Assembly: GCA_951406725.2 (NCBI GenBank)
Contig: OX597824.1
Span: 61,194,001 to 61,258,000, forward strand
Length of the DNA stretch: 64,000 nt
Origin: Octopus vulgaris
Taxonomy: Eukaryota
Reading direction: 5' to 3'
Translations under genes and position numbers: made by a program
The notes under the pieces: model-generated
What the model was told of the DNA's origin: nothing
Database searches by the model: none
The model's input: only the letters and a program-made list of their open reading frames with translations
Part shown: positions 10,675 through 63,959 of the stretch, piece by piece
How the letters are laid out: the number at the start of each line of letters is the position of its first letter
How positions within the stretch are numbered: the stretch's first letter is position 1

Positions 10675-10898
10675 GGCACCAGTTTTCTCAAATGATGATT
10701 CTGAGTATCAAAGACGGATGCTTCCAAAGCCACCTCCTGTCGTTCAGCTTCCAAAAGAGAGAGTATCTCAACCTCGCATGTCTTCTCCAGAGCCAAGCAG
10801 ATATCCACAGCCAACTGACATTCACTATACGCCAAAAGAAAGAAGTGCAAATGTAGCTCCTCCCAACTTGTTGGGAAAATCTGAACAGTTGTTGCATG
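10675..10898 (+). pseudogene. DUF4806-like gene, exon a (APVFSNDDSEYQRRMLPKPPPV...LLH)
   Basis: Polypyrimidine/TAG acceptor, GTAAGT donor at 10899, open frame, phase compatible with the next exon. Confidence 0.7.
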
Positions 10899-11692
10899 GT
10901 AAGTCAATATTATATCGTTGGTATACTTTAGGGTGTGAGGAAAGTGGTTTCAAATTTATTTATAAACAGAAAAATAAAACATTCTGTGTTTGAAAGCAGC
11001 TCTTGGGGTCATTTCATGGAGAGCTGTGTTTGAAATGTTTGCTTTCACCCTGATACATAATTACATTGCTTAAGAAATATTTGGCAGGTAAATGAGGGTA
11101 GAGTCAAAAGACAAAACACATTTTCAAGAATTTTACCAATTTAACCTATCTTGTTTCTAAAGGATTACTTAAAAACAATAAATTGTATTACTCATCCTAA
11201 TTGATCTGTTGATATTTGTGTGAGGATATAACTTTTAGCTTCAGCTAGCCACAACATCTCCATGTTGGACCTTTTCTCTTTTGGGTGAAGAGGTATAAAA
11301 ACTTTGCTTGTATTAGCATGAGGAATATAATACTGTAATATTAACTTTGGTGTCTTTTACTATTCTAGAGGCCCCTGGGGCACTGAAACAAGGTTCCACT
11401 TCCCTGTTAAATAGATATCATAACTCCCATTTCTGAAATATGAGACCCTTACCCCTAACCATGGCAAACTAGAAAGGACAAATAAATATTAGTGCTATAC
11501 TAGACCTTATATAAGGCTACAGATAATTGATTGTTGGTTTAGTGATGTCTCTGATTCCGGAAAGCAAATGTGAAATGAGATTATTATTGATTATGTGTTA
11601 TTCTCAGTATATCTGTAAACTACTAATGTCATGAAGTATACTCAGCAAGTATATCATAACTCTACCTTTTTTTTTTCTATTTTCTGTTTCAG

Positions 11693-18598: not shown

Positions 18599-20587
18599 GA
18601 AACTACTCACGTACAACACTGGATTTAGCTATAATATGTACCGAGTTCCCATAATATTTTCTATTTATTTCATACGAAAATCTGAATGAATTACGGTAGT
18701 CAAGGGAATCCCAATATTTGAAATATGGATACTTGCTATCTTTTATTCTTTCAACTTTTCTTTAACTTTAGATGGTACATCATTCTTTTCCTCGCATGAC
18801 CTAGGAATAGAGGCAATTCAATTCTGGTTAGAGAATTACGCCAACAAACTCTCACATCGCATCGAAAAAATAATTCGTGATGAAAGGGCTAAAATTCAAC
18901 TTGGAGAATAACTTCTTCGTTTTCAAAGACAACTTCTATCGACAAAAATCGGGGATTGCGATGGGTGGGAGAATGTTCCCCTCCTTTGACAACCTAGTCA
19001 TGGGATATCTAGAAATTAGTCTTTATCGTAAGGTTCTAGAAAAATACGGCAGCCCATTCTCCCTCTACATAGAAAATAACTGGAAGAAATACCTGGATGA
19101 CTGTTTCATTCTTTGACATGAAAAGGTAGAGAAACTTAAAGAATTCCAAGCGCTTTTAAATGGACTTGACGTAAACATCCAATTCACGATGGAATATAAC
19201 CATCATTAACTTCCCTTTCTCAACATCCTCATTAAGAAATCTGACAACGTAACAGAAACAGATATATACTATAAGCCCACGGACTCCAAGCAATATCTAC
19301 CGTTCAACTCATGCCACCCCAGACACACCAGAATGAATATCCCCTTCAACCTAGCAAAAAGGATATGTACTATAGTTTCTAATGCAAGCACCAGAAATAC
19401 ACGACTACATGAACTGGAGGATACACTCATCACCAGGAACTACCCATGTTCACTATTTGACATATACTTTCAACATGCCCTACAACTCAACATCCACGAA
19501 CTCAGACGTCTCAAATTAAAGAAGTATTTACAAACAAAAGCCCCACCATACATCTCCACACACAACCCTCTTAGCAATGAAGCCTTCGACACCATCCTTC
19601 AAAACACTCCCTTACTAAAAAAAAAAAGGACCACAGAATGAACTTAATCCTCCAAACACACACCATCATAAAAAGCAAATCTATGAAAAGTCTCCTAACA
19701 CAAGCCCGAATATGCTCAGCAACAACAGAGGAGCCGTCAGTAAAAAAATGCGGAAGACACAACTGTGGGATATGCGTCAATTTAATTGAGGGATCAGAGT
19801 TCTCCTTCAAGCAGGGACAACGTCTCACAGTGAAAAGCAGCTTCACATGTGCTTCGGAGAACCTGATATACTCACTAACCTGCTCTGGGTGTCAAGAGCA
19901 ATACACATGCCAAAAACAAACAAACAAAAAAAAACAGTCTACGTCAAAGGAAGGTTCTGCACAGATCCCAAATCAAAATTCGCTAAAACAGAAAAATAGC
20001 ATTCAGCCAACACATCGACATTTGCGCCAATAACAAAAATTCAAGCTTCAGAATTTTTCCCCTCTACCAATTCAGGGACAATACAACCTGTACCCAACGA
20101 ATTAGTAAAAAGACTCTCTTTATTACAAAATACAGACCCCTTTTGAACGCATCTACAACAAACGACATTTCCATCACTGCCTTAGATTAACACAAACGCA
20201 CAAGCAAATATTAAAAATGATACGTTCAAGAGATACCCAAAAATTCATTAAAAACAGTCCCAATCACTGCTGTAATTCACATCAAGTCACTTTTAGGTCA
20301 TTTGACCATTTAACATCCTACTACTATCATACCGTCCCGCATTCTCTTATTATTCTTTCTTTCTCTTTCTCCTTCTTCTTCTTCTCCCTTTCCGCCACCA
20401 CCTTCCTTTCTTTACTACTACTTCTGTTTAGAATAACACCTATGCAAATATTATAAACAATACATTCAAAAGAGATATCTCAAGAATTCAATCACTACTA
20501 CCATCTACAAAAAGTCACTTTCAGGGCACTTGACCAATTAACATCCTACTACACCCGCATTCTCCTTTCCCCCTTCTCCTCCTCGTC

Positions 20588-21384: not shown

Positions 21385-21653
21385 AAATAACATGGAAAAA
21401 ATAGATAAATAGATAAATAGTCACCAGGGTAGCAAAAAAACCACACAAGGTAAAAGGTTGTAACTCCTTGTTTTTAAAGGTAGAAATTTCGGTTTTATGT
21501 GAAATTTTTTTGTATAATACATAAAAATAAATAAATGGAGTTAAACGCGGTTGTTATTCAAATTCTTTTACTTCCGACACATGTTTCAAAGATATCACTA
21601 ATATTATTCCAAAGGAATAAAATGGTGTAAAACAATGTAATCTTCTCTTCAGG
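21385..21653 (-). mobile_element. Inverted pLTR copy of PLE2, including a truncated hammerhead
   Basis: 21531-21653 is the reverse complement of ~23414-23536. Confidence 0.85.
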
Positions 21654-21809
21654 ATCACAACATATGGGTACACTGCGACACAATTTCTTTTCCTCAACAG
21701 GCCCTGCCCTGTTTAGCATTGTCCCAAAACTGGTCAAAGAGGAAAAGGATTCTATCACCTTTAAACGTGTTCGGGACAGATTTCTTCAAGGGATACCAGA
21801 TAAGCCACC
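21648..21809 (+). mobile_element. L2/CR1-like LINE fragment embedded in PLE2
   Basis: Reverse complement (with scattered substitutions) of ~23703-23865. Confidence 0.85.
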
Positions 21810-21810
21810 T

Positions 21811-23536
21811 TGAAATGACAGAACAGCTCCAAAACATTAATGGAGGTCTATATCGTGATGATTGTTTACTTTACCTCCAAAATGTTTCCAACCAAAAGGT
21901 ACAAAAAGTTAAGAATAATTTAGTTAAAATTTTCCGAAGAATGGGTTTAAGCTTCGTTTTTGATGATGATATGACGAAAGCCAACTTTTTAGACATTACA
22001 CTTAACTTACACAATAACTCTTACTTCCCATACCATAAACCATCGACCAATCTTAAGTATATTAGCAAATTCAGTAATCATTCTAGGGTAATTACTAGGA
22101 ACTTAGTTAAGAATATTTCATTGAGATTGTCTAAGTTATCTGCTAATGTTGACATTTTCAATGATAAAGCCGAATTTTATAATTCTGCCTTACTTAAAGC
22201 ATGTTATACAGAGAAAGTTACCTACATTGATTCCATTCAATCTTATTCTAACTTTACTAATGTAGATATGAAATCTAGTTGTAAAGAAATTATAGATATC
22301 AATTTTAATTTATACACCAAAACAAAACGGACGAAGGGAGATAACCCTTATTCAATCCCCTGTTTTCATTCTAAAGGTAAATTTAAGTCTTTCAAAAATA
22401 ATTACACTAAAAATAAGATAACTAGTAGTAAAACGATTTGGTTAATTATTCCATACGTGAGGTAAATTAAATATAATCTTCCATTGCAGTTTCGTGAAGC
22501 TATTAATAGGAATTTTCCAAAGAATTCTAGGCATTACTTTATTATCAACTCATATACGGTTAGGATTGGTTTTTCAAACACTAAAAATCCCTTACAAATT
22601 ATCTCTTCATATAATATCAACCTGTTAAATATTAATACATAAACTAATACTAACGTTAATTTAGCTAATACCATCCATCCCTCTAGAAATATTAATAATA
22701 AAGTTATTGTATCAGAAGTCAATTACAACAGAATCACGTTTATGTCAAGTAACTGTAAAATTTAAAATTTTATATAGCAGTGTAAAATTACTACTTGTAA
22801 TCAAGTATATTTTTATATAGGAAGAACTTCTTCCCAGTTATCTAAAAGAATTTCTAATCATTACTCTTCATTTAGGGATAGAAATAAACGTAACAGTACA
22901 GGGCTTAGTAAATTAATTTGGGATCTAAAGGCCACAATAAACAATTTAATTTAGATTGGTTGATTCTCAATCTAGATACCTTATGGATAAAGACTAGGAA
23001 TTCTGTCTTCTCTGTAATTCTGAACTATTTTTTATTTTTTCTAAAACTCTTCTTTTAAACACGGTTATAGAGCGTGCATACCAATGTAAACATTGGCAAA
23101 AACACACCCTTAGTTCATATAAGTGATCTCTATCATTATATATAATCTATACATTAATTTTCTTTTTATATTTCACATTCACTAAATATATATTTTCCTA
23201 GTATATAAGGTTTTATTTAATATACATATAGTCATATACTTCTCATTTATTTAGTTTTTCTCTACTTTATCCCTCTCCTTTCCATAGGCTACATCTGACG
23301 TTTTATCCTATAAAGTTTTTTTGAAACAATATTAATAGCGTCCAATTAATCATTATACATATCCATCATTTTCTGTTAAAATGTCTTATTGACGAGTTTC
23401 ATTTCTACACTTCCCTGAAGAGAAGATTACATTGTTTCACACCATTTTATTCCTTTGGAATAATACTAGTGATATCTTCGAAACATGTGTCGGAAGTAAA
23501 AGAATTTGAATAACACCTGCGTTTAACTCCATTTAT
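21811..23536 (+). mobile_element. Penelope-like element 2 (GLYRDD-type RT C-terminus, GIY-YIG, pLTR)
   Basis: GGLYRDDCL; ANFLDITLNL; PYHKP..YISKFSNH; FYIGRTSSQLSKRISNHYSSF..STGLSKLIWDLK; CLLC; CKHWQKHTL* at ~23126. Confidence 0.92.
23409..23497 (+). ncRNA. Type I hammerhead ribozyme, canonical core
   Basis: ACTTCC-CTGAAGA-GAAGAT...ATCTTC-GAAA-CATGTGTC-GGAAGT: 6-bp stem I, 6-bp stem II, GUC cleavage triplet. Confidence 0.85.
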
Positions 23537-40735: not shown

Positions 40736-41015
40736 CACATACACACACGCATATTAACACAATAGTCCGTTTTGTAAGGTGAATTCTACAATAAAGATGT
40801 AATTTTCTCTATTCGCATTTTTGTTGTCAAATACACTGCATTTCTCGAAACACTTCTAAACGATATTTGCATCTACTTGCCATACACGAGGAATTACCTT
40901 GAAAGTATATTCTACTTACATTTACTGGTGTCTAATTGTTGGATACTATTAACAAAATTATTTTGAAACTGTGTGCTTTGTTGATACATGCCTGAATTTT
41001 TAAATCCTTTTCTTC

Positions 41016-41080
41016 CTACGTACCATGGTTTCGCTTGTTAATATTTACGAATGTAAATATCTGCAAGCTCATCAGCGTAG
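41016..41080 (-). ncRNA. Type I hammerhead ribozyme, perfect core
   Basis: rc: CTACG-CTGATGA-GCTTG..ATATTTAC attc GTAAATAT..CAAGC-GAAA-CCATGGTA-CGTAG. Confidence 0.9.
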
Positions 41081-41666
41081 TTTGTCGCTTACAAAACACA
41101 ATTTCCAGAACTAGACACAGAACGCTCACTCGAAAGAGAGCATGCATAAAGTTCTGCAAATTATATTTGAGGTTAGTTTTGAAATGTCTTCATTTTGGCG
41201 CACTGAGGCCGGAAATAATTCTGCAGTTACGGTTAGAGAACACATATAGTAGAAATAGATACGACTCCTATCAAAAGGCTCTGGTTAAGCTTAAGAGCAA
41301 AACGTCAATTATCTGACGAGAAACCAAGTTATATATGAACTGAAGAGATGCCTCTGCACGATGAGGTACTTTGGAATTCATTGTATAGTTTCCCACCCGC
41401 ACGAGAGATGCGCAGGGTGTGTCGAAACGACCGCTGCAATAGTTTAAGTTTCTAGTATATTCTGTTTTCCGTATCAAACGTTTCTACTATACTGAACATG
41501 TGATGTGGAATCCTTAACGTAGATCCAGCGACGATTCTGCAATTACTGTGGATGACGCCAAGTAGCCATAAGCAGTGAACGTGCTTTGCCGGTATACCAC
41601 TGTGGCTAAACCCAAAATGCAGTTTAAATTTATAATTAAAAATTAAAAATTAAAATCCAAACTCTA

Positions 41667-41718
<52 letters not shown>

Positions 41719-41863
41719 CATGTGTGTGTATTTATATGTACGTATGTATACATGTATATACATATATATTCTCTCTCTCTATGTGTGTGTGTGTACGTAT
41801 GTGTATGCGTGTGTGAGTGTGTGAGTGTGTGAGTGTGTGTATATAGGGCAGTGTGTGTATATA

Positions 41864-42093
41864 GGCGGCGAGCTGGTAGAAACGTTAGCACGCCGGACGA
41901 AATTCGTAGCCGTATTTCATCTGTCGTTACGTTCCGAGTTCAAATTCCGCCGAGGTCGACTTTGCCTTTCATCCTTTCGGGGTCGATAAATTAAGTACCA
42001 GTTACGCACTGGGGTCGATGTAATCGACTTAATCCCTTTGTCTGTCCTTGTTTGTCCCCTCTGTGTTTAGCCCCTTGTGGGTAGTAAAGAAAT
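41864..42093 (+). mobile_element. Family A SINE, young full-length copy
   Basis: GGCGGCGAGCTGGTAGAAACGTTAGC...GAGTTCAAATTCC...GTGGGTAGTAAAGAAATA; ATATAGGGCAGTG occurs on both flanks. Confidence 0.92.
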
Positions 42094-42647
42094 ATATATA
42101 GGGCAGTGACTTTACAAGTGTTTGTATGCACACATGCACATATAAATAATGAATGCGAAAGCAAAAGCAATAATTAAATGTATACACGCACGAATGCGCA
42201 ATGACACTTATTAGTGTAAACATACACACTTGCACACACACACACGCGCGCGCGCGCGCACACACACACACACAAACACACACACAGAATCGCAAAAAGA
42301 CACTCACACAAATAGATGCAAGACAAATGAAAACACTGATTATCACAGAAAAAATCGTTGAAAAGGCCACAGATGTGTTCTGAAAGAGTTTTGCAAATGA
42401 ATTAATTGCATAATTAATTGACAGTTATAATTAAAAATGTGAACTACAAGCGGTGCGTGTAATTTCACTGGTACAAAGATTCATTTAAAATAGAAATGTA
42501 TCTTATTTCAACACACGGTTGCTCACCAAGAATTTTGCGAAATAAATAGAAAAAATACAGAAAATGCAGAAATACACTTACGCGTATTTATGAATGTGTG
42601 GTTGTAATTACGCCTGCGTGTGTGCATAAATTTATGTATATGAGTAA

Positions 42648-42679
<32 letters not shown>

Positions 42680-42789
42680 ATACATATATATATGAATATA
42701 TATATGTGTGTGTGTATATATATATATATACATATACATATACATGTAAGTGTATATATATATATGTATACATATATATGTATGTATAT

Positions 42790-42989
42790 ATATTGTTATA
42801 TTTCGGAATGGTCATTTTGCCAGTTAAGCCAATAAAAACACACGCACTATATATTTGGTGTTATTTTGAAATTAGATTAAGATTAATGTAAAAAATAAAT
42901 AACACTGAAGCAAAATAACACCAAATATATAGTGCGTGTGTTTTTATTGGCTTAACTGGCAAAATGACCATTCCGAAATATAACAATAT
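42790..42989. repeat. Perfect 79-bp inverted repeat with 42-nt spacer
   Basis: Arms 42790-42868 and 42911-42989. Confidence 0.92.
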
Positions 42990-43046
42990 CTGTTTCAACA
43001 CACGACTTCACATAAAAAACCTTGAACAACAAATATATAAACGTAC

Positions 43047-43107
<61 letters not shown>

Positions 43108-43779
43108 GTATATATAATTACAAAGTGAGATAGGGATTATGAGCGTAACCCACTATGGGATATCATTTATCCAATATACTGCCAGTGAAGTACCCAGAAA
43201 GGCTAATACATAAATGCTAAGAATTGCAATGCAATTAATTCATTTATTGTATTATATGGGCGAAGGTAAAATGTTTTACCTCAAATTCATAATACAAAAT
43301 AAGAAAATGGAGGAATAGATTTCTTTCAATCATCAACTACTAGATAATACCAATTCATATAATTTATTAACTAATTATTTAGGAACATCCAGATCAAACA
43401 GAATAATATAGAATAAAACAGTACACATAAACTCGTTTATTCTGTAAATTAGCTCTTTGGTGTAGTGGTTCTTAGTTGGAATGGGTACATCTTTCATTGA
43501 TGAATTGATCTATATCTTCTCCATTTTACTACAAATACGTTGTGGAATAAAAAAAAAATACTGCCAAGGAAAAAGTCATACTGTAAAAATGCAGTAATGG
43601 GCATGAAAATGTATGTAATGTATAGAAGTGTATGAATGAAATCTTTAAGGTTTAAAATTCAAATTAAGGAAGTACAATAATAATGTTTAGCAGTTCAAAA
43701 CTGTGAGTAGTGAAATGCAGAATTAGGTCGGCTGATCGTGAGAATCAAATATTGATCGCTTCGCTAAAACCTGCAGGTG

Positions 43780-44225
43780 GCATGAATGATTTCCCTTGGG
43801 TTGTTTAAATAAAATATTTGTAATATGTAGTAGATAGAAAGATCTATTGGAGGGGCCATATTATCGATTTTTTCAACAATCTAAGTATGTTATGAGGTTT
43901 CTAGATATGAGTTCTACTTACGTGTCAAATAATGTGATATTGTTTGCAAAAATTAGAAATTGGACACTCAAAAATCAATATTCAAAGTAATCAAACATAA
44001 ACAATGAAATGGATTATTTCCCTTGGGTGTTAAAAAATAATTATATAAGGCAGTTATAAAGGTCCCTTTCAGGGGTCATATCATCGATTTTTTAACAATC
44101 TAAGTATGTCATGAGGCTTCCAGACATGAGGTCTACTCACGTGTCAAGTTTCATCAAAATCAATAACACGATGTAAGAGGAGTTAGCTAACAACGCCACA
44201 AACAAATACACCGATTTTCCACATA
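43780..44225 (-). mobile_element. Helitron-family fragment with internal tandem duplication
   Basis: Homologous (rc) to 36085-36260; the block ~43845-43930 is repeated at ~44060-44148. Confidence 0.7.
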
Positions 44226-44231
44226 TGTATC

Positions 44232-44263
<32 letters not shown>

Positions 44264-44441
44264 TGTATGTATGTATGTATGTATGTATGTATGTATGTAT
44301 GTATGTATGTATGTATGTATGTATGTATATATATAAACTAAATAACTAACTTCAAATATAATTTGCAGAACTTTATGCATGCTCTCTTTCGAATGAGCGT
44401 TCTGTGTCTAGTTCTGGAAATTGTGTTTTGTAAGCGACAGA

Positions 44442-44506
44442 CTACGCTGATGAGCTTGCAGATATTTACATTCGTAAATATTAACAATCGAAACCATGGT
44501 ACGTAG
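44442..44506 (+). ncRNA. Type I hammerhead ribozyme
   Basis: CTACG-CTGATGA-GCTTG...CAATC-GAAA-CCATGGTA-CGTAG; one stem II mismatch relative to the 41016 copy. Confidence 0.88.
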
Positions 44507-44667
44507 GTAATCGTTTTTTATTTCGTATATTTTCATTTGTCTTGCTCATTTTTACATTCTGGTGTTTTGCTGAAATTTTTCTTGAGAACTCTCTTCGTGG
44601 TAATGGTGATTTGACGTCTATATTTACCATATTAGGAGTCCATTTTGATGGCCACTCCTCTTAATTT

Positions 44668-44724
<57 letters not shown>

Positions 44725-51544: not shown

Positions 51545-51995
51545 TGGATGTGACCGTTGTAAAAAATTAATTGATCATCCGGGTTCGTATACTAATGGCA
51601 GTGGCCGTTGCAAGATCTGCATCGTGGGGAGAGCCTATATTCTTAATGACAATAAGAAATCTGGCGCATTAAGCAGCCGTAAAGAAGTGTTTTCTAAATG
51701 TATCCGCTTCAAGTACTACTTACTGGAAAATTGGATCTCCCCATTTGTTAGTTAGGCCTCTTCGGGTCTATAAGGGTTCCCACCCACTTTGATTGAGGGA
51801 GATAACCCGTCTTCATTATCGGTTTTTTGTTAAGACGTATTCCTCAAGTTCTGAGTGTTTCCTCACGTCTGCGACGTAGATATTTTAAATCTTGTATTTA
51901 TATAGTCTGACGCTGACGAGCTGTCCACAAGGCTTTGCTTTGTGGATGCGAAACCATGGGTAACTCTATGTCCAAGGTATAAACTTTTTGTTGTA
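51545..51995 (+). mobile_element. PLE 3' end (endonuclease C-terminus + pLTR with hammerhead 51904-51965)
   Basis: LIDHPGSYTNGSGRCKIC...LSSRKEVFSKC..KYYLL*; then AGT-(CTGACG)CTGACGA-GC..TCCACAA..TTGTGGA.GC-GAAA-CCATGGGTA-ACT. Confidence 0.8.
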
Positions 51996-52149
51996 ATATA
52001 TATATATATAATAATGTGTGTGTGTTTGTATGCGTGTGTATCAATGAACTTACGAAAACAAAAAAAAACAAAAGAAAGAAGAAGTGTCAGCCTTCAATCC
52101 CAGGAACACCGAAATATAGAAAATCTTAGAAAAACAAGAAATCATCAAA

Positions 52150-53500
52150 AGCAAAAGGCAGTCCATAACATTAAAACTCATTCTCATTGGAGCAAAATCA
52201 CACAAAGAAACCCCAAACTCAACGGTCACAAAATGCGGGAGAACAAATTGCGGTACATGCCTTTACCTAATTGATGGACCAGAATTTAAATTCAAAGATA
52301 GCCAAACCTTCAAAGTCAAAGTCCAATTTCACCTGCAACACGGAAATCCTGATCTACGTAATCACATGCAATGGTTGCCAACATAATTACATAGGTCAGA
52401 CGGGTGGATCGTTACGCAACAGAATGACGACCCATCGTCAGCAGATCCGAGACAAAACCACAAGGAAAATTCCTTTAAGTAACCACATTGCAACATGTAC
52501 AGGAATGGCTTTACCTAATTTCAAAATATTTCCCCTCTACAAGTGCTCAGATTCCTTCAATCAACAACAAAGACTAAACCACAATTAAATATAGACCCAA
52601 CCACAACTAATATATAAGAACAGACACTTAATTCTAAACAATTTTCAACAATTTATACATATAATTTTATAAAAATACTTCCCATCATCTCCTAAGTCTT
52701 TTTTCCATATACATATATGCCAGCACACACACATAAACGCACACACACACACAAACACACTCATACAAGCACACACGCACAGGCAAACATCCACACATAC
52801 ACAAAAAAGAAAACATCACAAAAAATACACACAAGTACACGCACACACACAACTTTATATATACACAAACATACACACAAACACACATATATACACACAT
52901 TCACAAAAAAAATCACAAAAACACACATACACACAGCTCGTGACCACACATTTACAGGTGGAACCACCCCAAAGAATGCATCTAATCCAAAGAAAAATCC
53001 TAATTCTTTTTTTCAACAAGAGAAATTCTTCACAACATACACACCCATCAACTCACAGCTGGCCATTTTCCAAAATATATTGAAAGACATTCAATAGAAT
53101 ACACACACACAAGTGGACATAAAACCCATTCAATTCATGCTTTTTAGCCACTACCTTGACAGGAACGCACAAAGATTTCTTTTAGGTAATAGACATCTCT
53201 TCTCTCACTCTCTAACACTTTGAACTCTACACCAAACTATATTTAAAGAAATCTTCAGCGAAAAATCTCCAGACATGTTCTTGACCACCAGACAGAAGAT
53301 AGACTGTTTTTACTTCAAAGTTTTCAAATTTTTTATAAATTTTTAATAATATTTGATAAGATGAAAAACATCGAAACCGGTAACATTAGTATTTTTATTT
53401 ATATAATCTTTTATTAAATTCTCTCTTATACTGAAATGTCTATTTCCACCTCCATCTTTTTTATATATAAAAATTTGATTTGTATAGATCTCTAATATTT
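52150..53500 (+). mobile_element. Penelope-like element 3 (GIY-YIG + 3' UTR)
   Basis: KCGRTNCGTC; FTCNTEILIYVITCNGCQHNYIGQTGGSLRNRMTTHRQQI...LSNHI; same architecture as PLE1. Confidence 0.88.
53347..53388 (+). ncRNA. Minimal type I hammerhead, U3-A8 variant
   Basis: TAATAT-TTGATAA-GATG aaaaa CATC-GAAA-CCGGTA-ACATTA. Confidence 0.7.
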
Positions 53501-63885: not shown

Positions 63886-63959
63886 TCTCTGATGAAGGAA
63901 TACTCAGTGCACAGATATGCTAGCCTATCACTTGGGATATCCAAGAAACAGGTGTAAGA
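63886..63959 (+). ncRNA. Type I hammerhead motif in a probable PLE pLTR
   Basis: TCT-CTGATGA-AGGAATACTCAGTG...CACTTGGGATATCC-AA-GAAA-CAGGTGTA-AGA, preceded by a pyrimidine-rich 3'UTR-like tract from ~63400. Confidence 0.65.

Follow-up and report, generated by a model that had tools for sequence, protein, structure and literature searches.

Two nearly identical hammerhead ribozyme sequences that face each other across some 3.2 kb raise the question of whether they belong to a young mobile element still able to release circular RNA, as an initial annotation of this DNA had proposed, or are the trace of an event of another kind. They lie in what we call the window, the whole 64,000-nt stretch of Octopus vulgaris DNA that was analysed. 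We suggest, with a probability of roughly 0.7, that the two hammerheads are overlapping halves of one old insertion of a repeat family with a ~521-nt unit, and that this insertion was split by a later 3.3-kb inversion during which 164 bp were duplicated at a staggered break.

The inverted arms and their repeat family

The two arms, at 41015-41178 and 44344-44507, are real: each is 164 nt long, they are inverted with 3165 nt between them, and 160 of 164 positions are identical (98% complementary), leaving four sites at which they differ. All the elements of a type I hammerhead that had been claimed for each arm were found in both, namely the CUACG/CGUAG stem I, CUGAUGA, a long stem II, GAAA, ACCAUGGU and the GUA site. 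Stem I has 5 bp, stem II has 14 bp and is interrupted, and stem III has 2 bp within the palindrome ACCAUGGU. The core pattern is matched four times in the 64-kb window against 0.11 matches expected by chance, and at least four matches were reached in 0 of 100 shuffles. The description of the two hammerheads as perfect holds for the minus copy, which folds as drawn with a z of -3.6 and a stem II of -13.0 kcal/mol, and fails for the plus copy, where a C.U mismatch sits at the base of stem II, beside G10.1-C11.1, in a stem of -7.8 kcal/mol (z -1.5). Rfam returned no hammerhead in the whole window at the gathering score, nor in a 4.1-kb region up to an E of 5, its output for both consisting of microsatellite noise only. 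The fourth match to the core pattern lies at 63889-63956 (+). A further core resembling a hammerhead, at 51913-51962 (+), combines a long stem II (z -2.65) with a CCAUGG stem III and lies a short way upstream of a broken fragment of Penelope-like endonuclease (52123-52579).

Neither a monomer nor an RNA circle is predicted to be releasable from the window locus. With one ribozyme on each strand, the pair can neither enclose a monomer RNA nor release a circle. A read-through transcript would hold one sense ribozyme together with its antisense, and the pairing predicted between the sense ribozyme arm and its 164-nt antisense (-284 kcal/mol, compared with about -50 for the arm alone) would block ribozyme folding. 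PMC4209133 describes single minimal motifs that failed to cleave and dimers that cleaved weakly.

Both arms are parts of a dispersed repeat, family A, for which 1,335-2,237 candidates were counted in the animal's own genome at first look, the figure differing by search. The best 40 of these were scored each time, and the best-matching loci of the searches make up 43 distinct loci, to which the counts out of 43 refer. The consensus, built from 40 copies outside the window, measures 493 nt. Its end is joined to its start by a 28-nt spacer, conserved at the 32 junctions where it was seen, which brings the monomer to ~521 nt with 34% GC; the idea that this stretch is a TA microsatellite was rejected, its sequence being conserved. 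The unit contains no ORF and has stops in all six frames.

With this monomer, the ~800-nt non-coding unit outlined in the initial annotation has to be given up. The minus copy had been traced ~550 bp upstream, to ~41640, but family A stops ~65 nt upstream of the arm, at ~41244, and the 400 nt upstream of the minus copy are another family (family B) on the opposite strand. Family B is ~400 nt long, has 346 candidates in the genome and, in the window copy, shows 71-83% identity to other loci, which are without a family A part; its hammerhead-like motif has a stem II of ~70 nt, and several copies have inverted arms. The plus copy, as had been described, reaches a (TA)n downstream, continuing for ~170 nt to the microsatellite at 44670-44718. 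Coordinates of all features are collected in Table 1.

Table 1. Features of the window locus and the related sister subfamily (window positions unless a locus is named)
Feature	Position	Strand	Remarks
Family C repeat	40759..41014	+	TA-rich 3' end missing; left breakpoint 41014/41015
Inferred inverted segment, 3.3 kb	41015..44343		41015-41178 and 44344-44507 are the breakpoint duplication
5' half of one family A copy	41015..41244	-	unit 73-85, small internal deletion, 108-323; ends 6 nt beyond predicted cut
Type I hammerhead motif, fully paired	41016..41080	-	predicted cut between 41021 and 41020
Family B, older dispersed non-coding repeat	41256..41654	+	own decayed hammerhead-like motif; separate from family A
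Broken 44-codon remnant like N-terminus of 778-aa Penelope-like ORF	43393..43524	-	43% identity, E 2e-6
Likely displaced family C end and its microsatellite	44234..44343	-	reversed beside plus half
3' half of same family A copy	44344..44676	+	unit 159-493; stops at family's usual 3' end
Type I hammerhead motif, C.U mismatch in stem II	44442..44506	+	G>T at 44488; predicted cut between 44501 and 44502
(TA)n target microsatellite	44670..44718		at element 3' end
Sister subfamily	L167-L181, e.g. G000:C13:70339917-70340219		4-bp stem III variant, compensatory stem changes

Across the genome, family A copies share a recognisable layout. The 3' end is retained in 37 of the 43 other main copies, and the family alignment places (TA)n, a microsatellite target, at the 3' ends. 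An extra direct piece, giving the partial tandem of a pseudo-LTR, is present at 24/43 loci, and an inverted arm, that is, an adjacent inverted 5'-truncated copy, at 22/43. Of the inverted pieces at other loci, nearly all are at most 500 bp away from their main copy (30/33), and as many (30/33) include the 3' end or the tail. One-sided tails of ~90-97 nt are composed of the spacer plus unit 1-58/68 (e.g. L002, L010, L049, L059, and L060).

Origin of the inverted pair

Projected onto the unit, the window halves cover positions 73-323 and 159-493 and jointly make up one 5'-truncated copy. They are 97.6% identical, compared with a mean of 88.0% (sd 2.4; 378 pairs of 28 copies) and with 94.2% for the best other pair, and each half lies 4.3-6.0% from the consensus of 40 other copies, both within and outside the overlap. 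The two halves have six non-consensus sites in common, of which three never occur among the 38-40 other copies. A single event may account for three of the six, which lie close together in a variable A/C run at the junction; one of the six is frequent elsewhere (16/40 copies), and another is found in 5/40. The pair is also unlike the family's inverted arms, being 3.2 kb apart with a minus half that is without the 3' end. Under the calibration of PMC13282606, in which a distance of 0.065 is equated with 18 million years, the insertion would very roughly be ~12-17 million years old and the duplication ~3 million years old.

Re-inverting 41015-44343 restores one whole family A copy together with the lost TA-rich end of the neighbouring family C repeat, and both breakpoints are thereby mended. 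An inverted duplicate at both breakpoints, with sequences that re-inversion repairs, is the pattern of a staggered break. Family C copies close with a run rich in T, and a TA/CA microsatellite follows at 14 of the 18 ends listed, two of the 18 being mis-anchored. At the present junction of the window copy such a microsatellite is missing; the re-inverted junction has one. The reverse of 44343-44314 resembles the family C ending with a score of 14.7, versus 6.8 for the present junction, and 14.7 is reached by 2.3% of 3000 random window 16-mers (p about 0.02); in this TA-repeat-rich genome, the restored end is a resemblance and no exact match. The inversion would have begun with two nicks 164 nt apart within the family A copy and a break at the family C repeat end, and the present layout would have arisen through fill-in followed by end joining, or through an equivalent template switch in replication. 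A 7-mer at the right junction (44334-44350) is repeated on both sides, which hints at microhomology during joining.

Reads from four of the 24 runs listed covered the left breakpoint region. An assembly artefact is unlikely, as a contig of organism B crosses the left junction 41014/41015 (with 97 and 40 nt). Contigs of organisms A, B, and D bridge the junction between family A and family B and break either at 41171, where the copies first differ, or at 41179, where they part; the 30-mer before 41171 is present in both window copies and absent from every other fetched locus. A two-copy state that predates the split of organisms A, B, and D fits these contigs, if indirectly. Organisms B and D appear from their read contigs to carry the derived state in the left region, no informative contig came from organism E, and the ancestral un-inverted junction was not seen there in any of the four runs.

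We consider it unlikely that two independent family A insertions, placed 3.2 kb apart, had their overlap homogenised by gene conversion while the minus copy lost its 3' part to a deletion. Nearby inverted repeats can undergo conversion, the genome has more than 1,300 family A candidates, and 4/43 main copies reach no further than unit position 376, all of which would be in keeping with such a history. However, both the element 3' end and that of family C would have to be removed by a separate deletion, and neither the family-C-like end found reversed at 44343 nor the exact complementarity of the two halves is accounted for.

It seems quite improbable that the ribozyme repeat itself templated the inversion, with a Penelope-like enzyme cutting the TA-rich family C end, reverse-transcribing 164 nt of RNA of the neighbouring copy, and the product being resolved against the parent copy so as to flip 3.3 kb. 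The left break does fall where a repeat end meets a TA microsatellite, which is the family's type of target, the duplicate stops at the 3' edge of stem I and contains exactly one whole ribozyme, and rearrangements caused by LINE-1 are reported in 10.1101/2024.12.14.628481. Yet the duplicate runs 6 nt beyond the cut site, so that a self-cleaved RNA cannot have been the template, and it is without the family's fixed 3' end and tail; the coincidence, moreover, concerns a single locus and was noticed post hoc. If true, RNA-templated inversion would raise the importance of the locus, since such repeats would then template inversions of host DNA.

Penelope-like partners, classification and age of family A

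That an autonomous Penelope-like element (PLE) supplied the repeats, as its solo pLTRs or its 3' ends, has a slim probability. Their hammerhead type and insertion architecture match those of the PLE pLTRs treated in PMC4209133 and PMC8557442, and PLE ORF fragments occur within 1.5 kb of family A at four distinct places among 70 partly overlapping loci. Against this reading, 25/43 main copies start at unit position 1 and the 3' end rejoins the start via the conserved spacer; a unit that closes on itself in this way without an ORF counts against a pLTR. At L014, the one of these four places looked at in detail, the ORF fragment is separated from family A by a pLTR-like sequence of its own that comes after it. 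The initial annotation had allowed that the copies might always be attached to a PLE ORF, but the 62 loci of the two PLE families that were tested proved to be free of family A sequence; an RT plus GIY-YIG ORF between repeats was likewise found neither in family A nor through a link with these two families.

Intact Penelope-like ORFs of 784 and 778 aa are present in the genome, so helpers would be available to family A. A family A master would give rise to head-to-tail or circular RNA processed by its own hammerhead, probably as a dimer via the palindromic stem III, and an autonomous Penelope-like RT/GIY-YIG protein acting in trans would insert copies of this RNA into (TA)n.

Pfam assigned 0 families to four window ORFs, which by their motifs, and beside the intact 784-aa and 778-aa relatives in the genome, we take to be Penelope-like. 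A broken Penelope-like RT/endonuclease ORF at 18762-20166 (+) has over 100 relatives with equal scores, and in many of them a 784-aa frame is open; these suggest that its family was recently active. The second broken Penelope-like ORF, at 21641-23415, has intact 778-aa relatives; on either side of it, at 21652 (-) and 23415 (+), lie hammerhead-like motifs in inverted orientation. The remnant between the two family A halves (43393-43524) is a nested neighbour, with no link to family A shown. At ~10675-10900 (+), an exon-like Pro/Ser-rich frame follows a pyrimidine tract and AG, and the window region may therefore sit within or near a plus-strand gene.

Non-LTR retrozymes consist of at least two head-to-tail units with complete hammerheads. 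The window copies are on opposite strands, and two same-strand hammerhead spans, ~530 nt apart, are present at 2/43 loci (L163, 4937-5676; L164, 3733-4621), with at least one core broken in both. The tandem arrays that were to be looked for are thus not seen among the 43 best-matching loci, none of which has two intact tandem ribozymes (0/43) or three same-strand hammerhead spans (0/43). The family A motif also departs from the canonical hammerhead, which has a helix I of 6 bp, a helix II of 4 bp, and a loop-loop contact. Family A does have the short, low-GC, non-coding unit of non-LTR retrozymes, its ~521 nt falling inside the 51-972 bp given by Li et al. and exceeding the 150-450 bp given in PMC7229834. 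Since two intact tandem ribozymes are missing from this sample, we file family A, on the features of its sequence, as an apparently non-autonomous, protein-less hammerhead repeat family of Penelope type that is retrozyme-like. Of the earlier view of a retrozyme-like, non-coding, PLE-mobilised element, the protein-less Penelope-type repeat is retained, as is its separateness from a pLTR with an attached ORF at this locus; the unit size, the age and the reason why two near-identical copies face each other are not.

Nor does the family look young, as had been supposed: its best copies diverge by 6-9% from the consensus, which argues that family A is ageing. Among 43 other hammerhead spans the core is kept in 14, and a 46-nt stretch of the ribozyme is matched exactly only three times in the genome. 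The sister subfamily shares 77% identity with family A; its best copies are 95-97% alike and it is hence younger, for which reason the reading of a 75%-identical copy in L005 as an older subfamily was rejected. Its stem I is CCAUG/CAUGG and its stem II base GAUUA/UAAUC or GAUUG/CAAUC, meaning that, relative to family A, 2/5 stem I pairs and 1-2/5 pairs of the stem II base are swapped and none is broken. Compensatory swaps without broken pairs indicate, as far as sequence comparison can, that the ribozyme fold is probably under selection in the source elements.

A young ~800-nt retrozyme yielding circular RNA from the window locus is hardly credible: it would suit the two nearly intact hammerheads and the two of the three exact 46-nt matches that the window holds, but not the upstream 400 nt, which are family B on the other strand, the unit of ~521 nt, the placement of the ribozymes on opposite strands, or the mere 2/43 other hammerhead spans that are strictly intact.

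Comparison with known systems

Among the papers listed for hammerheads, Penelope, and octopus together, titles and opening lines of abstracts mention nothing of family A, and the main text of the octopus repeat paper contains neither 'ribozyme' nor 'retrozyme'; its supplements or repeat library may hold the family. On the best reading, family A is one more ageing, protein-less hammerhead family of Penelope type, with little wider significance. The near-identical facing pair is best read as a single insertion split by inversion, a warning that inverted ribozyme copies this alike may be the scar of an inversion and then tell of neither youth nor function.

The closest counterparts of family A are EN-bearing PLEs and their non-autonomous derivatives, such as MRC1 of Chlamydomonas, as described in PMC8557442. 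That source sets out the Penelope insertion pattern of partial tandems and inverted arms, and family A shares with these elements the partial head-to-tail tandem and the adjacent inverted 5'-truncated copy, and with the PLE derivatives presented there the one-sided tail, the microsatellite target, and the hammerhead within the repeat. It differs from the PLEs of that account in having no ORF and a tail of ~90-97 nt instead of 30-40 bp, and the window pair differs from the usual PLE inverted arm in its spacing of 3.2 kb and in being without the 3' end.

The ribozyme resembles the PLE hammerhead variants described in PMC4209133, having a helix I of 5 bp, a long helix II, G10.1-C11.1, and a palindromic helix III suited to cleavage as a dimer, whereas its helix II exceeds theirs in length (14 bp, interrupted by an internal loop) and no unpaired base precedes stem II. 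Opposite-strand hammerhead pairs 100-700 bp apart are noted in the same source. With the animal non-LTR retrozymes presented in PMC7229834 and 10.64898/2026.07.22.740005, family A has in common that it is protein-less and low in GC (34% here), carries a type I hammerhead, closes head to tail, and coexists with intact PLEs; unlike them, it is found at the 43 best-matching loci mostly as monomers, without arrays of three, and with a non-canonical hammerhead.

The rearrangement has its own parallel in the staggered-break inversions of PMC1885836. Relative to the cases described there, the window inversion is small (only 3.3 kb), its duplicate is part of a repeat, and its ancestral order is a reconstruction. 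Like them, it would have left one breakpoint region present twice, as inverted copies at the two ends of the segment, and the 164-bp duplicate falls within the 46 bp-1.9 kb range given for those inversions.
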